IMG/VR virus record: IMGVR_UViG_3300035208_003482
Reading direction: 5' to 3' (one strand)
DNA: 64,000 bases
Source: a virus
In this document: piece by piece, positions 1 to 43,094 of the stretch
Numbering within the stretch: the stretch's first letter is position 1
How the letters are laid out: each line of letters begins with the position of its first letter
Program-made: the position numbers and the translations under genes
Notes under the pieces: model-generated
The model's database searches: none
The model's input: only the letters and a program-made list of their open reading frames with translations
Told to the model about the DNA's origin: nothing

Positions 1-99
1 GCCTTTTGATGGCATCAATCTGAGCTTCTGATAAACCAGCCTTCTTGATTATGAAGGAGGCTGAGGAGCTATTACTTACAAATCCGTTTCTGACTTTCA
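1..99 (-). CDS. N-terminal fragment of a gene running off the window start (starts at 99). Unknown function.
   Basis: Minus-strand ATG at 99..97 followed by an open frame to position 1 ('MKVRNGFVSNSSSASFIIKKAGLSEAQIDAIKR...'). Confidence 0.3.
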
Positions 100-987
100 T
101 TACTGTATTCCCAACTCCGCCTGCACCGCGCTTCTATTAACTAATTCAGATTCATACATTTTATACTTTTCAAATTTTCGTTTAAGTCTCAAATCAATTT
201 CATTATCATATAGAGTATTTAAAAACTTAAAACACTTACTACCTCTCCAGGTAAGTGTATCTCTCCAAAGATATCCGCCAAAACGATCTTGTATTGATTT
301 TAACAAATCATATGATAATGATTTTATAAAACACTGTGGTTGTCTATGTGATGTGTGAGATACACAACCATCACCATCAAAAATACCCCTAACAAAATAA
401 ACATCAAGATCAGTTGGTATGTCTGGATATTTTACAATATCACACTTTCTACCAAACGGTATTTGTAGAAGCTTAGCAAGATCTAATGCTATTTGCTTGG
501 AATCAACGCGCATTACAACCATACCTCTTTTATTGTATGATAAATGAGCATCGTTATTAAATAATAACTTTGATAATGTTTTCAATACATCCGAATCAGA
601 ACCAAGTATTTGAATTACGAAACCTCTTTTAGCTACATGACCATCACTTGCAATCCAGCCAAGTGCATAAGCCTTGGCTGGACTATCTATTACAGAAAAT
701 ACATTATCATCAATAAGATGATGTTTTGTATTTGGATTTAATCTACCAGAAGCTTTTAAATGACGAGAACACTGTAAACACAACAAATCACCATTATTGG
801 TTTTAGTATGTTTTAGATAATCCCTAAACTGAATTTCATATTCAAATCTACAATTTGGGGATTTCCCACTATCACATCTCACTAAAAACTTCTTATGAGA
901 ATTTCGTGGCACATCAGCCAGTTGATCCAAAACCTCCTGACCTGACAGCAGCTCTCCTTTCACATAAAGCATTAAAATCCTCCGCAC
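100..987 (-). CDS. Free-standing LAGLIDADG homing endonuclease
   Basis: Two LAGLIDADG-type motifs ('AYALGWIASDGHV', 'YFVRGIFDGDGCV'). N-terminus overlaps the 3' end of the upstream dUTPase gene. Confidence 0.6.
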   Translation of the reverse strand: MRRILMLYVKGELLSGQEVLDQLADVPRNSHKKFLVRCDSGKSPNCRFEYEIQFRDYLKHTKTNNGDLLCLQCSRHLKASGRLNPNTKHHLIDDNVFSVIDSPAKAYALGWIASDGHVAKRGFVIQILGSDSDVLKTLSKLLFNNDAHLSYNKRGMVVMRVDSKQIALDLAKLLQIPFGRKCDIVKYPDIPTDLDVYFVRGIFDGDGCVSHTSHRQPQCFIKSLSYDLLKSIQDRFGGYLWRDTLTWRGSKCFKFLNTLYDNEIDLRLKRKFEKYKMYESELVNRSAVQAELGIQ

Positions 988-1423
988 TAACTTTACTTAC
1001 AAGCATCTCTTGTCTTTTAACTGGAATTATTTGTCCAATTCTTTCACCTTTAGAAATTATAATACTAGAATCATTACCATGATTCGGTAAATATTGGCCA
1101 GCTAAAATAACTTCTTGTGGATACGTTTCATCTATTATACCTACCAAGATATGCATAGATTTTTTGGTAAAAGAAGAACTTCTTGGATGTAATTGAAACC
1201 ACCAACCCTCTGGTGGAAAAGCTCTAAACCCAAGAGGGATCTTAAAATAAGAAAAAGGATCAATTGTTATTTCAATTGCAGCTTTTACATCCCAACCAGT
1301 TGATTCTAGATCTGATCTAGATGGAAGAAAACTATCATCCAAACCTTCATTCAAAGTAAAAAAGAACTCTGGAATATTATCTTTACAACAACTCATTTTA
1401 TGAATCTTTCTTTTGGATTTCAA
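914..1423 (-). CDS. dut: dUTP pyrophosphatase (dUTPase)
   Basis: dUTPase-like motifs 'LHPRSS', 'GIIDETY', 'GERIGQIIP'. Typical size, about 170 aa. Confidence 0.65.
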   Translation of the reverse strand: MKSKRKIHKMSCCKDNIPEFFFTLNEGLDDSFLPSRSDLESTGWDVKAAIEITIDPFSYFKIPLGFRAFPPEGWWFQLHPRSSSFTKKSMHILVGIIDETYPQEVILAGQYLPNHGNDSSIIISKGERIGQIIPVKRQEMLVSKVSAEDFNALCERRAAVRSGGFGSTG

Positions 1424-1749
1424 AACATTCGGGTAAGATCATTAGCTAATTGCTGAACCTCTTCTTTGGTAAGATGAAGAGGCCGAGCAGTAGCTTGTAC
1501 ACTGAAACGTGTAGCCTTATCACTCCAAACGTCCCAGGAAAGAGGCTCGACCCCATCCTCTATTGCTCCCTTGACGTGTTCGCAGTACAAGATATGATTA
1601 AAAATCGTTTCATCACGAGCTTGTATCTCTTCTTTTGTATTTTCACAATCAAATGTTAAAGGTCTACATGCCTCAAATAGAAGTGTCAGAGCTTGTGTCC
1701 ACTTCTCCAGATTCTTCGCCTGATTTTTCAGTTCCATACTTCTCTTCAA
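1420..1749 (-). CDS. Hypothetical protein
   Basis: Intact ORF with a 4-nt overlap onto the downstream gene. No recognisable motif. Confidence 0.3.
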   Translation of the reverse strand: MKRSMELKNQAKNLEKWTQALTLLFEACRPLTFDCENTKEEIQARDETIFNHILYCEHVKGAIEDGVEPLSWDVWSDKATRFSVQATARPLHLTKEEVQQLANDLTRMF

Positions 1750-2134
1750 GATCTTTTAGAATCTCTGAAACAGCATAGTCTTTCTGTACCTGTTGATACA
1801 TTCTTCTAGCCGTTGCTTCTAATAAAGATTCTTCATTCGCAACCTTGATCAATGCTTCGGCGATTACTCGATACTCTTCAAATTGCTCTTTGGTATTCTT
1901 ACCTTTACCATATTTGGAATGAAAGTCTTCATGATGAAAAGAACATAATGTCGCACCATTACTTACATCGTACCTCTCTGTAGGATGAGAAGCCCAAGCA
2001 TTAAGATGATGTGAATTTAAAGCAACACCTCTACGACCACAAATTACACATGTATAATGATCTCGACGTTTAACTTCAGAAGCCCAACGAATATATCCAT
2101 AGTCATCTTTACGATCAAAGAATGTTCCCATCAT
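1673..2134 (-). CDS. HNH endonuclease
   Basis: 'CVICGRRG...NSHHLNAWASHP...NGATLCSFHHEDFH' HNH/His-Me finger motif. Confidence 0.6.
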   Translation of the reverse strand: MMGTFFDRKDDYGYIRWASEVKRRDHYTCVICGRRGVALNSHHLNAWASHPTERYDVSNGATLCSFHHEDFHSKYGKGKNTKEQFEEYRVIAEALIKVANEESLLEATARRMYQQVQKDYAVSEILKDLEEKYGTEKSGEESGEVDTSSDTSI

Positions 2135-2143
2135 TCCACCACA

Positions 2144-2401
2144 TTATCCTAAAAGGGCCTTGATAGCTTTCAAACGACGCTCTGGATTATCAGCGGTACA
2201 GCGGGCGATTAAAACTACTTCATCAAGAAGTTCTGCGGCTGATGAGAAATTATCTTCAACTGTCTTACTTAAACAAGATTTGCAAATTGTTATAGGTCCA
2301 GTAAAGCCTGCAACTTTAACTGTTTTTAAGTCAGTCTCAAAGTGTTCAGTGCCACAAGCTTGGCAGTTGATGGATACTGGGTCAGTCTCGATCTCGAACA
2401 T
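2144..2401 (-). CDS. Small zinc-ribbon protein
   Basis: 'CQACGTEH...CKSC' Cys pairs. Confidence 0.3.
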   Translation of the reverse strand: MFEIETDPVSINCQACGTEHFETDLKTVKVAGFTGPITICKSCLSKTVEDNFSSAAELLDEVVLIARCTADNPERRLKAIKALLG

Positions 2402-2600
2402 GATTCACCACCAGAGTGAACTACCATTACCTAAAGGTAAGGGCTTCCTATCGAACTTACGTTCTCAAGGCGTTTTAATTCGGTCTGTTCCATACCGAAT
2501 TTTAATACATTTATTGCTGCGTTAACATCTCTATCATGTTCCTTACCACATGATTTGCATTTCCATTCTCTTTCTTCTAACTTCAACTCTGTATTTATAT
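2396..2600 (-). ncRNA. Candidate omega-RNA (scaffold overlapping the tnpB 3' end, terminal hairpin, 'GGTAGTTCAC' end, then ~20-nt guide at 2396..2415)
   Basis: Sense strand '...GGAAGCCCTTACCTTTAGGTAATGGTAGTTCAC|TCTGGTGGTGAATCATGTTC'. Same terminal block as the other two TnpB loci with a different downstream sequence. Boundaries are approximate. Confidence 0.4.
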
Positions 2601-3576
2601 TACCACATTCTGAACATTTCTTAGAACTTGGCTCATATCTTCCTATCTTTATTAATCTCTTCCCATTCCATAAGGCTTTGTATTCTAACATTACTACAAA
2701 TGTGCTCCAAGAAACATCTCCGATATTTCTTGACATAGATGTATAAGACTTTTCCATTAGAGATTTTATATCAAGATCTTCTGTTATTATTACGTGGTTA
2801 TTGTTAACAATATCTTTAGATACTTTATGTAGAAAATCATCTCTTTTGTTACAAATCTTTTCATGCAATATAGCAATTTTATACTTTATGTTTCGGTAAT
2901 TAGAAGAACCTTTAATTTTTGTAGATAAAACCTTTTGTAAGGCTTTTAATTTCTTTAAGGATTTATGATAGAATTTAGGATTCTGTATTTTGTTTCCATT
3001 AGAGAAAGTTACAAATGTCTTTATTCCTAAATCTATTCCTATATTCTTATCTCCAGGAATTATGTTAGGTAATTCTTCTTTATTATCTACAAGAACGGAT
3101 ATGTAATACTTATTAGTACAAGTTTTTGAAATTGTACAAGTTTTAATTGTACCTTCAAAAGTTCTATGAAATTTAGCTTTAATTGTACCAATTTTAGGAA
3201 TACTAACGTGAGAATCTTTAAAGTTAACTTTAACAAATTGGGGAAGGGAAAATGATTGTTTAGAATATTTGGACTTAAAAGAAGGGAATTTATTTTGGTT
3301 CTTGAAGAATCTTTTATATGCTGAATCAAGATGTCTCAAGCTTTGTTGCAAAGCTTGAGAAGGTGCATCTTGTAACCAAATGAATTCCTCTTTAAGATCT
3401 TTTAGAAAAGAAGTTGCTAATTCATTATAAGAGATAGACTTTTTCTCAGAATCATAAACAGATTTCTTATGTTCGAGAGCTTTATTATATAAGAACCTGC
3501 AAGAGCCAAAAGCTCTTGCCAACTCTTCCGATTGGGAAGAAGTAGGGTAGATTCTATATTTGAAAGCTTTAAGCAT
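2431..3576 (-). CDS. tnpB: TnpB (IS200/IS605 OrfB-type RNA-guided endonuclease). RuvC triad present.
   Basis: N-terminus 'MLKAFKYRIYPT...ELARAFGSCRFLYNKAL'. RuvC-I 'DLGIKTF', RuvC-II 'ITEDLDIK', Zn finger 'CSECGN...CKSCGKEHDRDVNAAINV'. Confidence 0.8.
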   Translation of the reverse strand: MLKAFKYRIYPTSSQSEELARAFGSCRFLYNKALEHKKSVYDSEKKSISYNELATSFLKDLKEEFIWLQDAPSQALQQSLRHLDSAYKRFFKNQNKFPSFKSKYSKQSFSLPQFVKVNFKDSHVSIPKIGTIKAKFHRTFEGTIKTCTISKTCTNKYYISVLVDNKEELPNIIPGDKNIGIDLGIKTFVTFSNGNKIQNPKFYHKSLKKLKALQKVLSTKIKGSSNYRNIKYKIAILHEKICNKRDDFLHKVSKDIVNNNHVIITEDLDIKSLMEKSYTSMSRNIGDVSWSTFVVMLEYKALWNGKRLIKIGRYEPSSKKCSECGNINTELKLEEREWKCKSCGKEHDRDVNAAINVLKFGMEQTELKRLENVSSIGSPYL

Positions 3577-3700
3577 GTGTAATATTATGGATAAGATTAG
3601 TATTTCTCGACTTGAGAATAGAACGGCAATTCATCCCCCCGCCTAAAGGCAGGGGTCTTCTTGCACCACCAGAATAAAGGAATATTCAAATATCCCTATA

Positions 3701-4204
3701 TCACGGACGGAGATCGTCCTCTTTAACAAGTTCAAGAGTATTATTCTCTTTTATAATATAACAATTAACACCTGAAGATATTAACATTTCTAGTGATAAT
3801 TTATGTGTTTCGTAAGACCTTTCTCTAAAACCACGAGCACTTTCAGATTTATCTTCTGGATAAAAAAGTGATATAATACCAGATTGAATTATACCTCTTG
3901 CACAATCAGGACATGGAAAATGTGTACAATACATTTCACATCCTTCAAGAGATACTCCTATACGAGCTGCATGATAGAGACAATTTCTCTCGGAATGTTC
4001 TGTATAAACATATTTTAATGGACGTTCATACCTCTCTTCAATATCATCATCAACACCGCGAGGGAATCCATTATATCCAGTAGAACGAATCTCTCGATTT
4101 GGCCCTACAGCTACAGCTCCAACTTTTGTACTACGATCTTTAGACCAAGACGCAATATGCTTGGCTAGTTCAATAAACCTGAGATGCCATTTTGTTAATT
4201 TCAT
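3701..4204 (-). CDS. dCMP deaminase (zinc-dependent)
   Basis: 'HSERNCLYHAAR' (HxE) and 'PCPDCA' (PCxxC) zinc-binding motifs. Confidence 0.75.
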   Translation of the reverse strand: MKLTKWHLRFIELAKHIASWSKDRSTKVGAVAVGPNREIRSTGYNGFPRGVDDDIEERYERPLKYVYTEHSERNCLYHAARIGVSLEGCEMYCTHFPCPDCARGIIQSGIISLFYPEDKSESARGFRERSYETHKLSLEMLISSGVNCYIIKENNTLELVKEDDLRP

Positions 4205-4706
4205 GTCTTGTTACACCTGGAAAATAGACTTCCCAATCTGGATGAATTTCTTGTAGAACAGAATACTCTAGACCTAACGCATCAGGAGGTGCCATTGGTT
4301 TACTCAACAACTTCAAACCAGCCTCTTCAGGAGTCCTATTACTCTTGGCCGCATTGACTTCAAGAGAAGCTGTTACACAATTCTCCCATGTGCTTTTACC
4401 ACCTCTCGATTTTGGAAGAATATGATCAACAGTTAATTGAGATGGCGGAAGGATTTTTCCAGTATAACAACAAGTATAAAAATCCCTACGAAAAACTCCA
4501 CGAAAATTGAACCTAGGTTGTAATGGCTTTTTACGAACATAGGACTTAAGAATGATGATTGCGGGATAATCTAGTCCATCATAAAAAGACTCACCTTTCC
4601 ACTGAGAAATAACATCAGCCTTTCCTGTCATGACAAGACGAATCATTCGTCGAAATGCAACGAATGCAATTGGCTTGTATTGTCTATCAAGCAGTAGCGT
4701 TTTCAT
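4170..4706 (-). CDS. HNH endonuclease
   Basis: 'TVDHILPKSRGGKSTWENCVTA' HNH motif. Confidence 0.55.
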   Translation of the reverse strand: MKTLLLDRQYKPIAFVAFRRMIRLVMTGKADVISQWKGESFYDGLDYPAIIILKSYVRKKPLQPRFNFRGVFRRDFYTCCYTGKILPPSQLTVDHILPKSRGGKSTWENCVTASLEVNAAKSNRTPEEAGLKLLSKPMAPPDALGLEYSVLQEIHPDWEVYFPGVTRHEINKMASQVY

Positions 4707-4717
4707 GCTATTTTAAC

Positions 4718-5491
4718 CTATTCACTAGAAATTCTTGACCACAATTCTTGCATTGTCTTTTCTATTTCCTCACCAGAAGAATATATCAAATCATTAAAAG
4801 GAGACATGTCTCCTTTTAATTTAGAGAGTGATTTCCTTATATCCTCGCCTTTTGACATTAAAACTTCATTACCAAGACAATACCAACCTCTTTTTTGACG
4901 TCTAGCAAAAAGCTCAAGTTTATTACATTCTGTTTTAGGAAACATTTTTTCAAGCATATCTTGCAATAATTCTGGCTTTACTGAATGTTTTGTAGCTGGG
5001 AAAAAATGAACAGATCTTTGAGATTTATTTTCTAAATGATTGTAGATCTTACCACGAACTCCAATAAGTGCAAGTTCATGAGTCTGTCTAAATAAACGAC
5101 CCATTCCAAATGCTAGCAAATTATTTGCATTAAACTTCGAAAGAATATCCTTAATAAATGGAACTAAGCCAGGTTTTGGAGCCTTAAAAGCTTTAGTAAT
5201 TTCTCGTTGAATTGATTTCAAAGGATCTTGCTTAGTCTTTACCCAAATATGAGTCTGAGTCTGACGAAATCCCCATGCTTTCATTATATCAAGTCCATCT
5301 GAAAGTAAAGTAGATGGTACCCAAAGAACGAGAATAGCGTCATCCTCACATATTTCCTTCACATTAAGATTCTTCAAATCTTCAATTGATAGAGTATCAT
5401 AATTAGCTGATGCTCCTCTTTTTGTTTTAGCCATGGAAAGTTCATCTTTGAACCTATATGGAGGATCTGCAATAATAACACTAAACTTCAT
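4718..5491 (-). CDS. DNA methyltransferase (N6-adenine/N4-cytosine, beta-class/MT-A70-like)
   Basis: N-terminal 'IIADPPYRF' DPPY catalytic motif. About 257 aa. Confidence 0.6.
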   Translation of the reverse strand: MKFSVIIADPPYRFKDELSMAKTKRGASANYDTLSIEDLKNLNVKEICEDDAILVLWVPSTLLSDGLDIMKAWGFRQTQTHIWVKTKQDPLKSIQREITKAFKAPKPGLVPFIKDILSKFNANNLLAFGMGRLFRQTHELALIGVRGKIYNHLENKSQRSVHFFPATKHSVKPELLQDMLEKMFPKTECNKLELFARRQKRGWYCLGNEVLMSKGEDIRKSLSKLKGDMSPFNDLIYSSGEEIEKTMQELWSRISSE

Positions 5492-5501
5492 AAGTCAACC
5501 T

Positions 5502-5999
5502 TTATCCTTTTTTCTTTATAGTCTTTACAGAGGAAGATTCATATATTCCATTCTCGATATCTTGAATCTTGGCAATGATACAATCAATCCTTGCAACATT
5601 CAGCTTAATCTTCTCATCTTCAAGCTTGGACTTTTTCTGCTCATGAAGCCTACGCAATGCAAACTTATGTTTCATATCTTGAAGATTGAATTTGGTTCTT
5701 GGATTCTTGTGTTCGCGATTTAGGGATTCGCAAAGAGTTTCGATGGGTAGGGAATTAAACCAGTCCATCGCTTCATCCTTTGAAGCACCTAAAACATATC
5801 GATCATGTTCTTCTCGAATTGCTTCAAGATCCAAATTCAATTCATTCACACTGCGTTGAAGCTTTTTAACCCGTTGAGAAAGGTTATCGTTCTTCAACAT
5901 CATACCCCAATTCTCGAAGAAATTCTGCAGTATGAGTTCTAAATGTAAGGTGACCACCCCTCTCCCATGAGAGCAAAGTATCACCATCTTCAAAGCCAA
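5502..5999 (-). CDS. Hypothetical coiled-coil protein
   Basis: Heptad-rich sequence. Overlaps the next ORF. Confidence 0.25.
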   Translation of the reverse strand: MALKMVILCSHGRGVVTLHLELILQNFFENWGMMLKNDNLSQRVKKLQRSVNELNLDLEAIREEHDRYVLGASKDEAMDWFNSLPIETLCESLNREHKNPRTKFNLQDMKHKFALRRLHEQKKSKLEDEKIKLNVARIDCIIAKIQDIENGIYESSSVKTIKKKG

Positions 6000-6312
6000 T
6001 AAGCTCCTCCATTGGTTTTCCAGTTCTATTTACTTCAGAAATCAAAGCTATCTTAAAATCTTGCAACCTAGCTTTATATCCATTTACAAAATCTTCACCA
6101 GCCTTCTTTAAAAGTTCAGCATCATCATTAGCTGCCTTTCTTGCCTTGTGATAGTCCCAATAAACGTCATCTGGTGAAAGATAATCATGAACGAAATCAC
6201 ATTCATAACCAGCTTCCTCTTTCAGATTCTTTGGAGCTGAAGGAGCAATACAGATTTTACGTCCAGATCCATGAACTTCGGGTTCCCAAAATGATGCAGT
6301 ATAAATCTTCAT
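5884..6312 (-). CDS. Hypothetical protein
   Basis: ORF only. Confidence 0.25.
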   Translation of the reverse strand: MKIYTASFWEPEVHGSGRKICIAPSAPKNLKEEAGYECDFVHDYLSPDDVYWDYHKARKAANDDAELLKKAGEDFVNGYKARLQDFKIALISEVNRTGKPMEELIGFEDGDTLLSWERGGHLTFRTHTAEFLRELGYDVEER

Positions 6313-6331
6313 TGTGTTTCTCTATAAAATC

Positions 6332-6358
6332 AAAGGGCGGGATTTTGTCCCGCCCTTT
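6332..6358. terminator. Rho-independent terminator hairpin (bidirectional)
   Basis: 'AAAGGGCGGGATTTTGTCCCGCCCTTT' perfect 8-bp GC stem flanked by A/T runs. Confidence 0.6.
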
Positions 6359-6521
6359 GAATGGGCTTGTTGCCCGTTTCTCGACCGCTATATTAAGCAG
6401 TATCTTTAATTTGATCTTAGAACACTTCTAAGATCAAATGGCCTCTTTCATTGAATGAGAAGAGGCTCTTGCCCTTTTACAAAATTCGTATTTGGACAAG
6501 GCTATCACCACCCTTCGAAAA

Positions 6522-7289
6522 TTAACCATCACCATTCAAGGTTAATGGGTTAAGCTCAACCGGTTTATCCGATTGAGGTATCACAATAGGATATGTAACA
6601 TCAATTTGCTTCTTCCCAGAATCGGGAGGAAAGCGTTTGAGTACATGTACCTGATAACTACCAGGCGCTAACGCTAGCATCCATCGACCTTTTGTATTTG
6701 TACGAGTTTGATTTATGAGAGATCCATTTTCATCTAACAACTCTACTGTTGCTAAATAGATAGGTGAGTCTTCTCTAACCAAATTCTGAGACACGGAACA
6801 CTTAGTACCTTTGGTCTTTGGACCTCTTTGACCACGAGAATTTCCACGAGAAGCTGCAGACTCTAACAAATCAATATCACTTTCACTTTTGACCATCTGT
6901 GTTGGACGAGGTAAAGCATCATTCGAGAACTGACTCGCAAAAGCCAACGCTTCTGCTTCATCGTCTGATTCAAAAGGATCGACAGGGTTAATATCATCCT
7001 CAACATTAAGCCCATGACTTGCTGCGGCTTCAGTAAACTTATTTGTCCGTGATCTGGATTCAAAGTTGTCCTTGTTTACAACAGATGGAACAACCGGTAC
7101 ATTTGTAGTTTGTTGTACCTGTTGTGATTGTGATTGAACAACTGTTCCAGAACTCAAAGAAGCATTAACTCTAGATAGTAAAATCTTGAGAAGGTTCTCT
7201 GAATTCTGGACACGCTTATCCAACGTACTCAATCGAGCTTCAATATCTAACAGAATATCTGTTGCCGATCTTTTATCGTCAGTTACCAT
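6522..7289 (-). CDS. Hypothetical protein (acidic middle, beta-rich C-terminus)
   Basis: ORF only. Confidence 0.3.
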   Translation of the reverse strand: MVTDDKRSATDILLDIEARLSTLDKRVQNSENLLKILLSRVNASLSSGTVVQSQSQQVQQTTNVPVVPSVVNKDNFESRSRTNKFTEAAASHGLNVEDDINPVDPFESDDEAEALAFASQFSNDALPRPTQMVKSESDIDLLESAASRGNSRGQRGPKTKGTKCSVSQNLVREDSPIYLATVELLDENGSLINQTRTNTKGRWMLALAPGSYQVHVLKRFPPDSGKKQIDVTYPIVIPQSDKPVELNPLTLNGDG

Positions 7290-8365
7290 TAATCATCCAA
7301 GATTACACCAAAATCAATTGGTATTCTCTTAATTAATTGAATATTCTCAACTGGAACATTGTTACCAAGAATGAGTTTAGTAAGTACTTCGCGAGCTTCT
7401 TTTGCAGAAGACAGTGTTACAAACAACTTGTCATCAATGAAAATGGCAAATTGCCCGGCAGCTAGAGCTGATGAAATCTTTACAGTTGCTTGAGGCTCCT
7501 CAGCCTCTTCGGATTTCTCTTCCGAAAGATCAGGAGGTTCACCCTCATAATCTTCGTGCATCTTTTCTTCATCTTCTTCGGAAGATGAAGTAAGTTCATA
7601 CTCTTTTGCTTCAAATTCAAGCTTTAACTGATCAATAACATCATTGACCAATTGACCAACTGCAACTCTTTCAGCAGATGGAATCTTGGAGAACTGTATA
7701 AGGATATCACTCAGGATACCGTTCTTACCAAGAACCCTAGATTTAAGATCGGCAAAATCATCTAACGAATCCATCACTGACAGTTCTTCAGTGACTTCGG
7801 TCAGCATAACTTGAAGTTGATGCTCTAGGTTTTTACGAACTGAACTTTCAAGATCCTTTAGTGGATTCATTCCCTGAAGTGTTTCAACATGGTTTTGAAC
7901 CGCATCACCATCTTCTTCAGAAACAGTCTCTGGCCAATTGTTATCAACCATTTGTGATTTTGAATTCTTTGTATCCGGTAAACCAGTTACTTCTTTCGTT
8001 GCCCAAGCCGTTTCTACCTGCCCAACAGATACGAAATTGTTCTTTGGCGGTATAAAACCATCATCACTAAAATTCTGCTGAGCAGATACTACTGGTATTC
8101 CTTTCTTAAGAACAAGGTTAGATGATTGTTTTTTGTTTGGATCTGATGCTTTAATAACAACAGGCTTATTAGAAACTTCTTTCATGATAGGAAAGTCCCC
8201 TTTATTAGTTGGTTGAGGTGCAACTTTAGGAAGTCCAAACTCATCATGAAGAAGTGACTTACCACCATCCTTTGGCTCATAGTCAAGCCTTTGGTATTCT
8301 GGTGGTTGGCGCTTTGCATCCAAAATGCGTCGAACTCTATTTCCTCGAAGATCTTCAGTCATCAA
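7289..8365 (-). CDS. Hypothetical acidic protein
   Basis: ORF. Stop/start overlap with its neighbours. Confidence 0.3.
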   Translation of the reverse strand: MMTEDLRGNRVRRILDAKRQPPEYQRLDYEPKDGGKSLLHDEFGLPKVAPQPTNKGDFPIMKEVSNKPVVIKASDPNKKQSSNLVLKKGIPVVSAQQNFSDDGFIPPKNNFVSVGQVETAWATKEVTGLPDTKNSKSQMVDNNWPETVSEEDGDAVQNHVETLQGMNPLKDLESSVRKNLEHQLQVMLTEVTEELSVMDSLDDFADLKSRVLGKNGILSDILIQFSKIPSAERVAVGQLVNDVIDQLKLEFEAKEYELTSSSEEDEEKMHEDYEGEPPDLSEEKSEEAEEPQATVKISSALAAGQFAIFIDDKLFVTLSSAKEAREVLTKLILGNNVPVENIQLIKRIPIDFGVILDD

Positions 8366-12378: not shown

Positions 12379-14652
12379 ATGCCTATTTATTTTTCGCCTC
12401 AAAAGGCCATGTCTCAATTAGTTCTGTCGAAAGACCAAGAAATTGCGTACAAAACCATTGCTAAATGGTTGGCAGATGGCGGTGTTGTTCACCCAAAACA
12501 GAAAGACCCTCAGCTATTAAGTCTTGGTGGTTATGCCGGCTCTGGAAAAGCGCTAGATATCAATACTCCTATACCAACTCCAAATGGTTGGACTATAATG
12601 GGAGAATTAAAAATTGGTGATGTAGTTTTCTCAGATGATGGAAAACCATGCTCAATCATTGCAATATCAGAGATTATGACTGGCCATGATTGTTTTGAAT
12701 TTGAATTTTCTGATGGAACAAAAGTCATTGCAGATTCAGATCATATTTGGAAAACTAAAAACTATAAAGAAAGAACTAAAAACAAACAACCAAAAGAAAG
12801 AATATCTAAAGAACTATTTAATACACAAAGAATAGGAAAACACAAACGTGTAAATCATTCTATTGATATTGTACCTGCTATAGAAATTGAAAGTAAAAAA
12901 CTTCCAATTGATCCATATTTACTTGGAGTTTGGCTTGGCGATGGCGCTAAATCTATGGCAAGAATATCAAGCATTGATAATGAAATTATAGATTCATTTA
13001 AACATGAATATAACATAAACAAAGTTGCTGGAGAAAATTGCGATTGGGGAATTAGTTCAAAAAATAATGGTCCATCATTAAAAGTTCAATTAAGAACATT
13101 GAATCTATTGTTTAATAAACATATTCCAACTATTTATTTGAGAAGTTCAAAAGAACAAAGAATGTCACTTCTTCGTGGTTTGATGGATACCGATGGAACT
13201 GTTTCTAAAGATACAGGAATACCATCATTTACCAATACAAATAAACAATTAGCTATTGATACTTTAGAACTAATTAGATCTCTTGGGTTTCATTCTAAAC
13301 TAACAACAGGCAAAGCTAAACTAAATGGTATTGTAACGTCTGATAAATATACCATACATTTCTCAGCAAATGAACCAGTTTTCAGGTTGTTAAGGAAAAA
13401 ACGCCTTCAAAAGATATTTAACTTTAGAGCAACATATGGAAGAAAATACATAACAAATGTACGTAAAATTGATTCTGTTCCAGTCAAATGTATAGCTGTT
13501 GACTCTTCTTCGAAAATGTATTTATGTTCTGATGGGTTTACTCCCACACATAATACAACACTCGTATCTACGATTGCTAAAGAGTTTGGATCAGCTATTC
13601 GCTTCGCTTTCTGCGCTTTGTCAGGAAGAGCTGCTAGTATTCTTGGTGTGAAGCTTCAAAATCAAGGTATTCGTTTCAAAGATGACGGACACTATTGTGG
13701 TACTATCCATCGACTGATTTATCGACCCATAGAAAATAGTGAAGGTGAAGTTATCTTCTGGGCAAAGAAAGAATCATTGGATTACGATGTTATCGTAATG
13801 GATGAAGCTTCCATGGTTTCGGAAGATATCTTTCGAGATCTTAAATCATACGGTATCGATATTTTGGCTGTTGGAGATCATGGTCAACTACCACCTATCG
13901 AAGGTAAATTCTCCTTGATGTCTGATCCTATCTTGAAGCTTGAAAAGATTCATCGACAAGCAGCTGATAATCCAATCATAAGTCTTTCGATGCACATTCG
14001 AGAGAGTGGTAGAATACCAAAAGATTATACCAACAACGATAAAGTTCAAATTGTTAAAAAGGGAGAATACATAGATTATCTGAAGGATATCTATTCCAAA
14101 AGTCAAGATCCTGAAAAGACAATTGATACAGCTGTTTTGTGTTACACAAACGCAACCAGATCCAAATTAAATATCATGATTCGTAATATGGTTTTTGGAA
14201 ATATATCTTCAATACCATTAGTTAATGATATTGTGATTTGTCTTAGAAACGCCGTCAATAACAGAAAAGTTCCTTTGTACAATGGGTTTAGAGGATATCT
14301 ATTAAATGGTGTTCAAGATGAAGGTGATTTCTATGAGGGTAATATTAGATTCCCTTATGAAGGATTTGATACCAATGTGAATAATTTATTGAAGTATCAA
14401 TTTGGATACAATAAAACATTTAGTTCATTTCAAGAACTTGAGAACTTTGGAATGGATGTAAAGCACTGGTCCGAGGTTGGTCTTTTATTTGATTACGGAT
14501 ATTCGATGACAGTTCATAAAGCACAAGGATCTCAGATGAGTAATGTTGTGCTGTTTAATGAACGCCCAGCTCCGGTATCGGACGACAACTACAAACGCTG
14601 GCTCTATACCGCGACCACCAGATCCTCGGACAAGCTAACAATTATTTTGTGA
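12379..14652 (+). CDS. SF1B DNA helicase (RecD/Dda/Pif1-like) with an intein inserted in Walker A
   Basis: Extein 'GYAGSGK|TTL' (P-loop), 'MDEASMV', 'VGDHGQLPPI', 'TVHKAQGSQ'. Confidence 0.75.
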   Translation: MPIYFSPQKAMSQLVLSKDQEIAYKTIAKWLADGGVVHPKQKDPQLLSLGGYAGSGKALDINTPIPTPNGWTIMGELKIGDVVFSDDGKPCSIIAISEIMTGHDCFEFEFSDGTKVIADSDHIWKTKNYKERTKNKQPKERISKELFNTQRIGKHKRVNHSIDIVPAIEIESKKLPIDPYLLGVWLGDGAKSMARISSIDNEIIDSFKHEYNINKVAGENCDWGISSKNNGPSLKVQLRTLNLLFNKHIPTIYLRSSKEQRMSLLRGLMDTDGTVSKDTGIPSFTNTNKQLAIDTLELIRSLGFHSKLTTGKAKLNGIVTSDKYTIHFSANEPVFRLLRKKRLQKIFNFRATYGRKYITNVRKIDSVPVKCIAVDSSSKMYLCSDGFTPTHNTTLVSTIAKEFGSAIRFAFCALSGRAASILGVKLQNQGIRFKDDGHYCGTIHRLIYRPIENSEGEVIFWAKKESLDYDVIVMDEASMVSEDIFRDLKSYGIDILAVGDHGQLPPIEGKFSLMSDPILKLEKIHRQAADNPIISLSMHIRESGRIPKDYTNNDKVQIVKKGEYIDYLKDIYSKSQDPEKTIDTAVLCYTNATRSKLNIMIRNMVFGNISSIPLVNDIVICLRNAVNNRKVPLYNGFRGYLLNGVQDEGDFYEGNIRFPYEGFDTNVNNLLKYQFGYNKTFSSFQELENFGMDVKHWSEVGLLFDYGYSMTVHKAQGSQMSNVVLFNERPAPVSDDNYKRWLYTATTRSSDKLTIIL
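12550..13554 (+). mobile_element. Intein (about 335 aa) with LAGLIDADG homing-endonuclease domain, inserted between K and T of the helicase P-loop
   Basis: Starts 'ALDINTPIPTPNGW' (block A with Ala1) and ends '...THN' + Thr(+1). LAGLIDADG motifs 'LLGVWLGDGA' and 'LLRGLMDTDGT'. The insert is markedly more AT-rich than the exteins. Confidence 0.7.
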
Positions 14653-38410: not shown

Positions 38411-38485
38411 GTATCTATACTGAAAAATGCGTAACACAACATATTTTTACAAAAACCTATCAATTTTGTAGGATACTTATAAGTT

Positions 38486-39682
38486 ATGTCGTTCAAAGCG
38501 TTTCGATACAGAATCTATCCATCAAAAGAACAAGAAGCTTTTCTTGCTAAATCTTTTGGCTGCAATCGCTTTGTCTTTAATTTCTTCCTCAATAGAAGAA
38601 AACAAGAATATACTAATTCTAAAAACAACTTGAATTATTATGATCTTGCTAAAGAACTTACTCAACTAAAACAACGACAAGAATTTTCTTGGCTTAATGA
38701 TGTTAATTCTCAGATGTTGCAAAGCTCTCTTCGTAACATCGAAACTGCTTATACCAAATTCTTTACCAAACAGAATAAGTTTCCTAGATTCAAAAGCAAG
38801 AAGAATGAACAATGCTTTAAAATTCCACAAGCATTCTCTATAGAAGATGGTTTACTTTGGATACCTAAACTAAAATCCGGAATCAAAATTCGTCTTCATT
38901 CTCCTATTGGTGGTAAATTTGTATCTTGTTGTATTCGTAAAACTTGTTCTGGAAAGTATTATGCAAGTATTCAAACAGAACTTGAAATTGCTAAACTTCC
39001 ATTAAGTAATAATAAGGTTGGTTTAGATCTTGGAATCAAACATCTTATTACTGATTCAAATGGTAACAAGATTGATAATCTAAAAGCTTACAAATCCAAA
39101 CAAAAGAAATTAGCTTATAGAAGCAAACAACTGAGTAAGAAACAAAAAGGATCTTCAAATAGAAATAAAGCAAGAATATTGCTTGCTTTGATTCATGAAA
39201 AGATTTCAAACATAAGAAAAGATTACTTACACAAATTAAGTCATAAGATAGTTAGCGATAACCAAGTTATTATCTGTGAAGATTTAAGTGTAATCAAAAT
39301 GATGAAGAATCATAATCTTTCTAAGAGTATTGTAGATGCTTCTTGGGGAGAGTTGTTAAGGCAACTTGAATACAAATCAGAATGGTATGGAAGAACGTTT
39401 TATAAGATTGATAAATACTTTCCATCAAGTAAGATGTGTAATCAATGTAATTATGTTCTTCAAGATATGGAGCTTAAGGTTAGAGAATGGGAATGTCCAA
39501 AATGTCATGCAAAGCATGATAGGGACAAGAATGCAGCCAATAATATATTGGAACAAGGCTTAAAAGATTTGGGTTTATGGAACGTAATCCCAGAGAAGAA
39601 TTCTGAAAAGGATTCTTTGAAACAAAAACTTGGGGAGGCGCTATCAGTTGATAGGTCTGAGAACCAAGAAACTATTGCTTAA
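38486..39682 (+). CDS. tnpB: TnpB (IS200/IS605 OrfB-type RNA-guided endonuclease)
   Basis: 'MSFKAFRYRIYPS...FGCNRFVFN', 'DLGIKHL', 'ICEDLSV', 'CNQCN...CPKCHAKHDRDKNAANNI'. Confidence 0.8.
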   Translation: MSFKAFRYRIYPSKEQEAFLAKSFGCNRFVFNFFLNRRKQEYTNSKNNLNYYDLAKELTQLKQRQEFSWLNDVNSQMLQSSLRNIETAYTKFFTKQNKFPRFKSKKNEQCFKIPQAFSIEDGLLWIPKLKSGIKIRLHSPIGGKFVSCCIRKTCSGKYYASIQTELEIAKLPLSNNKVGLDLGIKHLITDSNGNKIDNLKAYKSKQKKLAYRSKQLSKKQKGSSNRNKARILLALIHEKISNIRKDYLHKLSHKIVSDNQVIICEDLSVIKMMKNHNLSKSIVDASWGELLRQLEYKSEWYGRTFYKIDKYFPSSKMCNQCNYVLQDMELKVREWECPKCHAKHDRDKNAANNILEQGLKDLGLWNVIPEKNSEKDSLKQKLGEALSVDRSENQETIA

Positions 39683-39718
39683 AGCATTGGTAGTTCACAC
39701 TGAAAATTGCCTACTTAC
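39520..39718 (+). ncRNA. Candidate omega-RNA for the second TnpB (scaffold ends 'GGTAGTTCAC' at 39689-39698; guide about 39699-39718)
   Basis: '...GCTTAAAGCATTGGTAGTTCAC|ACTGAAAATTGCCTACTTAC'. The guide overlaps the 3' end of the converging phosphatase gene. Boundaries are approximate. Confidence 0.4.
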
Positions 39719-42486: not shown

Positions 42487-42511
42487 TGTTCCTCAAAAGC
42501 CACATAGAAAA

Positions 42512-42973
42512 ATGGCCCATAGTATCCGTCTGTTAATAAATAGATTGTATGATGCTAAAATCAGAAAGATAAATGATTATCAGCATAAAGTCTCGAAGAG
42601 ACTTGGTTCAACATATGATACAATCTATGCAGAAGATCTTTCTGTCAAAACAATGTCAGAAAGTAAGTTCAAGAACCTAAATAAAGCATTACGAAATGCT
42701 AAACTGTCGCAATTCTTATTATTCTTAGGATATAAGAGTAAGAAATTAGTACTAGTAAATCCAAAGAATACATCAAAAACATGTAATACATGTGGAAAGG
42801 TACATGATATAAAGTTATCAGATAGGATAATATCGTGTAGTTGTGGGAGTGTATATGATAGAGATGAGAATGCGGCAAGAAATATTTATTGCTTGGGACA
42901 AGCTATTGAGGATAATCCTCAATATGTTGGATCGTTAACGATCCAAGAAGCCCTTGCCTTTAGGCATGGGTAG
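42512..42973 (+). pseudogene. N-terminally truncated TnpB remnant (RuvC-II, Zn finger and RuvC-III only) retaining the conserved 3' end and omega-RNA terminus
   Basis: 'YAEDLSVK', 'CNTCGK...CSCGSVYDRDENAARNI'. Lacks the RuvC-I Asp and the N-terminal half. Ends 'GGGTAGTTCAC' at 42969-42978. Confidence 0.6.
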
Positions 42974-43094
42974 TTCACTATAGTCTAGGTACCTAACTTT
43001 GGATGCATGTTCTCCAGAAAGAATATATGTTCTACCAAAGTAAGTACCTACACCAGATGGTACGTCTTCTATAAACGTAAACAGATTTGGCTGC

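Follow-up and report, generated by a model that had tools for sequence, protein, structure and literature searches.

How can TnpB units come to stand between two copies of their own target sequence? IS200/IS605 elements are textbook transposons that leave no target duplication, the family being defined by the absence of a target-site duplication (TSD) and by scarless donor joints. The question is raised by a 64,000-nt stretch of viral DNA (IMG/VR record IMGVR_UViG_3300035208_003482), referred to below as the window, which carries three TnpB units: TnpB-1 on the minus strand, and TnpB-2 and the 5'-truncated TnpB-3 on the plus strand. A preliminary description made from the sequence had drawn attention to repeats beside TnpB-1 and TnpB-2 as unexpected for this family, and the units indeed break the no-duplication rule, with 10, 12 (11/12 identical) and 7 nt, respectively, at both ends. 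We find this observation solidly confirmed, and the mechanism that we propose for it, homing triggered by TnpB and its guide RNA, is plausible on sequence comparison.

The TnpB units and their flanking repeats

The three TnpB proteins share just 33-43% identity pairwise (43% between TnpB-2 and TnpB-1). Pfam analysis revealed HTH_OrfB_IS605, OrfB_IS605 and Cas12f1-like_TNB in TnpB-1; TnpB-1 and TnpB-2 scored above the curated cut-offs, and TnpB-3 gave a partial match. TnpB-1 matched ISDra2 TnpB structures (E=1.9e-70; top-scoring chain 9yyg, E=5.5e-71), and alignment to 9yyg revealed that TnpB-1 keeps GIDLG, EDL and DRDxNAA, the three catalytic motifs of RuvC. Each unit is about 1.26 kb long with tnpB alone; tnpA is present in the relative L054, and no Y1 transposase TnpA was detected in the 64-kb window by tblastn with TnpA queries from L163 and L054 (best E=0.5). 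All three right ends (REs) terminate in GGTAGTTCAC, of which the window holds exactly three exact copies; other sites with one mismatch lack the hairpins and were discarded as chance matches. The RE matches no Rfam family. On the basis of protein, end structure and transposon-associated motif (TAM), the three units are identified as TnpB-only, non-autonomous IS200/IS605 elements of the IS1341 type. The parts of TnpB-1, with its left end (LE), are the following.

3674-3678, minus strand: TAM TTTAT, directly 5' of the TnpB-1 LE; the same TTTAT precedes the single repeat in the empty alleles L138 and L139
3664-3673, minus strand: left repeat copy TCTGGTGGTG, positions 1-10 of the LE
3577-3663, minus strand: rest of the LE, comprising CAAGAAGA, the hairpin, ATGAATTGCCG and the leader to the ATG; homologous to the LEs of L020, L021, L044 and L223
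3655-3636, minus strand: LE hairpin CCCCTGCC-TTTA-GGCGGGGG, which folds with an 8-bp stem
2431-3576, minus strand: tnpB-1 coding sequence, 381 aa, with the Pfam domains and the ISDra2 TnpB match
2416-2443, minus strand: RE, with hairpin CCCTTACC-TTTA-GGTAATGG (2443-2424), then TAGTTCAC and the terminus TTCAC (2420-2416)
2396-2415, minus strand: predicted guide/target, beginning with the right repeat copy (10 nt, 2415-2406)

Read in the sense of tnpB-1, with slashes marking boundaries, the 5' side is CCTTTAT/TCTGGTGGTG/CAAGAAGA-CCCCTGCC-TTTA-GGCGGGGG-GATGAATTGCCG...ATG, and the 3' side is GGAAG-CCCTTACC-TTTA-GGTAATGG-TAGTTCAC/TCTGGTGGTG/AATC-ATG, the last ATG belonging to the next gene. Both hairpins fold as predicted. 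The exact repeat at 3673-3664 and 2415-2406 accounts for both copies of TCTGGTGGTG in 64 kb (chance expectation 0.11), the left copy beginning one base past TTTAT and the right copy one base past the RE terminus TTCAC. The direct repeat reported earlier at TnpB-1 is therefore real, and its length is 10 nt (2406-2415 and 3664-3673) rather than 9. The predicted guide stretch covers the ribosome-binding site and start codon of an 85-aa gene.

TnpB-2 has a corresponding arrangement, TCTAT/ACTGAAAAATGC/GTAAC...GGTAGTTCAC/ACTGAAAATTGC/CTA, with these parts.

38414-38418, plus strand: TAM-like TCTAT, 5' of the TnpB-2 LE; the corresponding bases are TCCAT in the empty allele L059
38419-38430, plus strand: left repeat copy ACTGAAAAATGC
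38486-39682, plus strand: tnpB-2 coding sequence, 398 aa
39689-39698, plus strand: RE terminus GGTAGTTCAC
39699-39710, plus strand: right repeat copy ACTGAAAATTGC, guide positions 1-12

The two copies are identical at 11 of 12 positions, the sole mismatch falling at position 9, and the stop codon of a convergent phosphoesterase gene directly adjoins the right copy. The 13/17 match described previously (38419-38435 against 39699-39715) is present, and the empty allele sets the true duplicated unit at 12 nt. The LE hairpin of TnpB-2 is different from that of TnpB-1, being A/T-rich, and is common to L344. The canonical LE start of the TnpB-2 lineage could not be fixed from its nearest relatives, which are at most 60% identical, and scanning IMG/VR with a TnpB-2-type LE pattern returned a single match, a random one.

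The same flank/guide relation, which the preliminary description had proposed to look for in more genome copies, was found in TnpB-3, a unit outside that description, in the form of the 7-nt repeat TATAGTC.

42512-42978, plus strand: 5'-truncated tnpB (153 aa; 42512-42973) and RE ending in GGTAGTTCAC; full-length alleles in L024 and L434
42979-42985, plus strand: right repeat copy TATAGTC; its left counterpart is missing from the window through deletion and present in L024 and L434

In L024 and L434, other assemblies of the same phage, the left side reads CCTTAA/TATAGTC/GTGCAAGAAAT-hairpin and continues into an intact tnpB start. Compared with L024 7040-7197 and L434 1-330, the window (42500-42560) holds a deletion allele without 42 nt of left flank, the entire LE and about 60% of tnpB, with the junction CCGTCTGTTA/ATAAATAGATTG. 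The LE hairpin of L024 and L434 has the 3' arm GCTGGGTT instead of GCTGGGGG, giving a weaker predicted stem, which may reflect decay of TnpA recognition. TnpB-3 disrupts an 81-aa gene on the opposite strand.

Empty alleles and control elements

Empty sites in related phage contigs were recovered by protein look-ups; a metagenome scan with the dCMP deaminase yielded just distant relatives (at most 70% identity), of no use for this purpose. Single-copy empty alleles were obtained for all three sites, in L138, L139 and L140 for TnpB-1 and in L059 for both TnpB-2 and TnpB-3. The empty TnpB-1 site in L138 and L139 reads CCCTTTAT/TCTGGTGGTG/AATCATG (wider, TGA-TATAGGGATATTTGCATATCCCTTTAT-TCTGGTGGTG-AATC-ATG), and that of the more distant L140 reads TTTTCAT-TCTGGTGGTG-AATC-ATG. 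The TnpB-1 guide matches these alleles exactly over its full length, beside TTTAT in L138 and L139, and the flank of the element agrees with the empty alleles over its first 36 bases in L138 and L139, well beyond the guide, and over its first 19 in L140. The empty TnpB-2 site in L059 is CAT-GTATCCAT-ACTAGAAATTGC-CTA (TCCAT/ACTAGAAATTGC/CTA).

For TnpB-3, the interrupted gene has an intact 81-aa counterpart, P0001 (94% identical), in L059, where the DNA in the TnpB sense is CAAC-TTTAA-CATAGTC-TAGGTACC and the guide has one mismatch, at position 1. Joining the right flank of the window to the left flank of L024 with one copy of the 7-mer restored an 80-aa frame, and joining them with zero copies broke it. 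Assigning the right repeat copy to the element was accordingly rejected, because its removal breaks the frame of the interrupted 81-aa gene and contradicts L059.

The native sequence at all three sites thus contains one repeat copy directly 3' of the TAM (TTTAT, TCCAT and TTTAA), and the filled sites contain one per end, the right copy being the start of the guide in all three units. This comparison, called for in the preliminary description, confirms the element boundaries and the single versus double repeat copy, as well as the proposal that the repeats coincide with the TAM-proximal part of the guide/target. Judged by these alleles, the flanking repeat is a real duplication. What was seen between empty and filled alleles is solely presence/absence polymorphism among related metagenomic phage contigs.

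The matches were also measured against 21 other elements with definable ends (from IMG/VR, metagenome contigs and one bacterial genome), in which the LE start was compared in register with the RE flank. The common prefix is 10 nt for TnpB-1, 8 nt for TnpB-2 and 7 nt for TnpB-3, compared with 0-1 nt in 19 of the 21 controls; of the remaining two, one has 3 nt and the other, L355, has 6 nt. A single one of the mismatched LE-flank pairs (1/552) reached 6 nt. Chance, which the preliminary description had named among the findings that would undo its reading, is excluded because the prefixes in the window lie far beyond those of the controls (at most 3 nt in 20/21) and of the mismatched pairs. A cruder prefix search of 46 bacterial elements returned background levels. 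Apparent repeats found in L206 and L163 by a naive prefix search were rejected, lying inside tnpA remnants or coding sequence, and a loose LE pattern scan of IMG/VR gave 120 matches that were nearly all random, the real ones being known loci only.

Several observations on other elements may be recorded here. Possible further in-register repeats occur in L355, a Saccharibacteria metagenome-assembled genome (TTTAT/GAAAGG on the left and RE/GAAAGG; 6 nt), and in L164 from IMG/VR (TTTAT/TCATAGG on the left and RE/TCATAGG; 7 nt). The contigs L158 and L159, which differ in their right flanks, have the same left end of a TnpB element and the same left flank over 45 nt. RE-only remnants, consisting of a hairpin and GGTAGTTCAC with little or no tnpB, are frequent in related viral contigs (L055-L058, and L044 on the minus strand), and these may be 5'-truncated copies.

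Replacement of left-end bases by target sequence

Subterminal hairpins at both ends are a defining part of IS200/IS605 architecture. More than 15 relatives have a hairpin of this kind in the LE, 16-20 nt past a TTTAT/TTTAA/TTAT motif and with ATGAAT(T)G after it; it resembles that of the RE and agrees with it in orientation, TTTA loop and A/G-rich 5' block. What had been taken for a right-end-like remnant upstream of tnpB-1 is such an ordinary LE hairpin, and it gives no evidence for tandem insertion next to a pre-existing right end. Reading the ends as terminal inverted repeats with a TSD was also rejected, the LE and RE hairpins, loops and 5' CAAGAAG blocks all being in direct orientation. 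In LEs of the GTGCAA subfamily (L223 8490-8560; L024 7100-7165; window 3620-3680) an outer helix, GTGCAA/TTGCCG, surrounds the TnpA-type hairpin.

The spacing from TAM to hairpin is 18 nt in TnpB-1 and in the L024 allele of TnpB-3, which is the family median (range 16-20 nt in 17 relatives). Since this spacing is unchanged, target sequence has taken the place of LE bases and has not been added to them. The TnpB-3 lineage provides the direct comparison: at three unrelated sites (L221, L222 and L223) its LE reads TTTAA/CCTGATC, followed by GTGCAAGAAAT or GTGCAAGAAATCCCCTTGCTTTAGC, and L024 and L434 are identical to this LE from position 8 on, with positions 1-7 being TATAGTC, the local target. 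Similarly, L020 and L021 (83-86% amino acid identity to TnpB-1) sit at different sites, with no repeat and with flanks unrelated to the LE start CGATATC-GTG that both carry. The constant LE starts of L221-L223 and of L020/L021 indicate that transposed copies normally keep their own LE start; together with the local target sequence found in this phage, they indicate that its LE start was replaced by the target, in register. For TnpB-3 the alignment of these alleles shows in-register replacement of the LE by target sequence, and in each unit the first 7-12 nt of the LE appear to have been overwritten, base for base, by the start of the local target, where the guide has its TAM-proximal seed.

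Origin of the repeats and comparison with known systems

TTTAT is the experimentally defined TAM of ISGst2 TnpB2, and TnpB is known to cut joints of TAM and flank and to drive spread of insertion sequences without TnpA. This published cutting, together with the lack of a detectable TnpA in the window, the motifs kept in TnpB-1 and its exact guide match, leads us to propose that the repeats may be scars of homing between phages triggered by TnpB and its guide RNA, an explanation that we favour tentatively and rate a little short of probable. The TnpB-guide RNA complex of an element-bearing phage would cut a co-infecting relative in its empty allele, about 15-21 nt away from the TAM, and because the cut lies distal to the TAM, the left broken end of the recipient would keep the TAM and the proximal target bases. 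During recombinational repair the 3' tail would pair with the left flank and TAM of the donor, setting the register, and the unpaired tail would be trimmed until its tip meets a few matching bases of the donor LE, candidates for such microhomology being GTG (positions 8-10, target and LE) in TnpB-1 and TC (positions 6-7, target and canonical LE) in TnpB-3. The trimmed tail would then be extended through the element, and after replication one daughter would have its original LE start exchanged for target bases, giving TAM-repeat-LE...RE-repeat. Cleavage, tail retention, microhomology priming and heteroduplex resolution are all inferred steps. Such a course would account for the start of the repeat exactly at the TAM, its variable length, the unchanged length of the LE and the absence of repeats from copies moved to new sites by TnpA. 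TnpB cleavage reportedly (Karvelis et al. 2021) leaves roughly 15-21 nt on the TAM side, and the repeat lengths of 7-12 nt fall inside this remainder, which speaks for homing.

Several points weigh against homing. Cleavage and homing in these phages are deduced from sequence, and a single phage lineage supplies all three cases. At none of the three sites did we find a donor allele with a canonical LE start, and no single contig spanning both ends of full-length TnpB-3 was retrieved. Priming from a terminal match of 2-3 nt across a mismatch bubble of 5-7 nt is demanding. The TnpB-2 site of L059 has a different TAM and mismatches to the guide at positions 4 and 5 of the seed, and since the LE of L344 (59% amino acid identity to TnpB-2) also starts with ACTGAA, at an unrelated site, the TnpB-2 repeat may be partly element-borne. 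Related TnpB elements in IMG/VR contigs are without such repeats, and canonical ends with no repeat are seen in Aeromonas phiA009 and Microcystis Mic1, two cultured phages whose element ends could be defined; if homing were general in phages, scars should be commoner than was found.

The single copy at empty sites, the two at filled sites and the position of the repeats against both element ends would be produced by a genuine TSD, in which an insertion pathway makes staggered cuts beside the TAM (e.g. a TnpA nick and a second nick 7-12 nt away) and the gap is filled, the element then starting past the repeat. We consider this unlikely, although not negligible. The TSD-generating mobilisation put forward in the preliminary description fits poorly in its fixed-length form, because the repeats measure 7, 10 and 12 nt, the distance from TAM to hairpin is the canonical 18 nt and not 18 nt plus the repeat, and the same lineages elsewhere have a constant LE start and no repeat. 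Furthermore, tblastn with two related Y1 queries detected no transposase gene in the window, and the two TnpB-2 copies differ at position 9.

Target choice by resemblance reverses the direction: the LE start would be element-borne and insertion would occur at look-alike phage sites, through a guide from an RE-LE circle or tandem junction or through single-crossover integration of a circle at microhomology. The ACTGAA start shared by TnpB-2 and L344/L345, the latter at an unrelated site, fits this, as does the partial likeness of the TnpB-1 start TCTGGTG to those of relatives, e.g. CCTGATC. However, the canonical TnpB-3 start CCTGATC (at three sites) matches the target at just 3-4 of 7 positions and the LE was changed to the target, the TnpB-2 match reaches 11/12, far past the shared 6 nt, and RE flanks of the controls show no tendency to resemble LE starts. 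The earlier suggestion of homing into sites resembling the element's own flank consequently fails for TnpB-3 and may hold for TnpB-2, in view of the ACTGAA start of L344; as a general explanation it is improbable.

A further proposal concerns maintenance of the repeats rather than their origin, namely that a partial self-target (TAM and a 7-12-nt seed) is kept by selection, the TnpB-guide RNA complex binding it without cutting and thereby regulating tnpB or marking occupied alleles. The TAM is kept beside every left copy, and the matches are at most 12 nt long, the longest having a mismatch at position 9, as would fit avoidance of self-cleavage. Nevertheless, such a function is here a prediction, most relatives manage without the repeat, and the window has lost the left copy of TnpB-3 by deletion without any effect that could be seen; we hold this proposal to be quite improbable. 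Tandem insertion beside an older right-end remnant, or a set of chance matches, can be dismissed as very improbable despite the roughly 25/30 likeness of the upstream hairpin to right-end hairpins, given that this hairpin occupies the canonical LE position, ahead of the conserved motif ATGAATTGCCG that many LEs have in common, that the left repeat lies 5' and not 3' of it, that an exact 10-mer is expected 0.11 times per window, that the control distribution comes nowhere near three in-register matches of 7-10 nt, and that the empty-site alleles contradict it.

Returning to homing, its strongest form is speculative and in our judgement rather unlikely: the TnpB-only elements would spread here purely by RNA-guided homing from one co-infecting genome to another, LE overwriting, which could extend further with every event, would act as a one-way ratchet bounded by self-cleavability, the partial self-target at the promoter-proximal end of the element would be bound and not cut, giving autoregulation or allele marking, and the repeats would be the natural footprint of an RNA-guided gene drive among viruses. 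The duplicated guide seed at the LE, seen in three independent elements with empty-site controls, provides a searchable signature for telling copies made by RNA-guided homing from those moved by TnpA. It also raises the question of a regulatory or protective role for a TAM and partial guide match at the element's own end, and annotation pipelines that set the ends and guides of elements on the premise of no duplication would place the left boundary of these copies wrongly.

The genes of the window itself, which resembles the genome of a large phage, are mostly on one strand and include those for topoisomerase IA, dCMP deaminase and an intein-bearing helicase; a near-match search of INPHARED with window positions 1-8000 found nothing among deposited phages. 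The genome is rich in selfish endonucleases: the helicase (12379-14652) holds a LAGLIDADG/Hom_end intein-like insert, and an HNH endonuclease gene (4170-4706) overlaps the start of the dCMP deaminase gene. An 864-aa protein (22144-24738) has the shoulder and repeat domains of major vault protein. Logan contigs of this phage (L029 1-30; the ends of L033, L035 and L432) stop within tnpB or the right-end hairpin, and such breaks inside TnpB units fit either repeated hairpin sequence or presence/absence heterogeneity in those samples.

Among known systems, IS1341-type elements such as ISGst2 of Geobacillus stearothermophilus (TAM TTTAT) share with the units described here the TnpB domains, the RuvC motifs, directly oriented subterminal hairpins at LE and RE, insertion 3' of TTTAT/TTTAA/TTAT, an RE adjoining the guide and the lack of inverted terminal repeats. 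Compared with IS200/IS605 elements, the units differ in having the first 7-12 target bases at both ends and in lying in a window without TnpA. DDE cut-and-paste transposons also have short direct repeats of the target at their flanks, but there are here no terminal inverted repeats and no DDE transposase, the repeat length is variable and the element length is unaffected. The homing endonucleases of T-even phages, free-standing or intron-encoded and with flanking co-conversion, resemble the present case in presence/absence polymorphism, break repair and variable tract ends, whereas recognition here is RNA-guided and conversion would end a few bases into the element instead of in the flank. To our knowledge, TnpB homing has been demonstrated so far only in engineered bacterial and plasmid systems. 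In the papers that were searched, we found no description of LE overwriting or of such repeats for TnpB elements. The likeness to TnpB homing (restorative homing, Meers et al. 2023; IS605 gene drive in plasmids independent of TnpA, preprint 2025) lies in an empty allele with TAM and guide match, in the motifs of TnpB-1 and in the proposed break-induced copying; the published homing products are precise, whereas here the LE is overwritten and the setting would be phage-to-phage transfer in co-infection.

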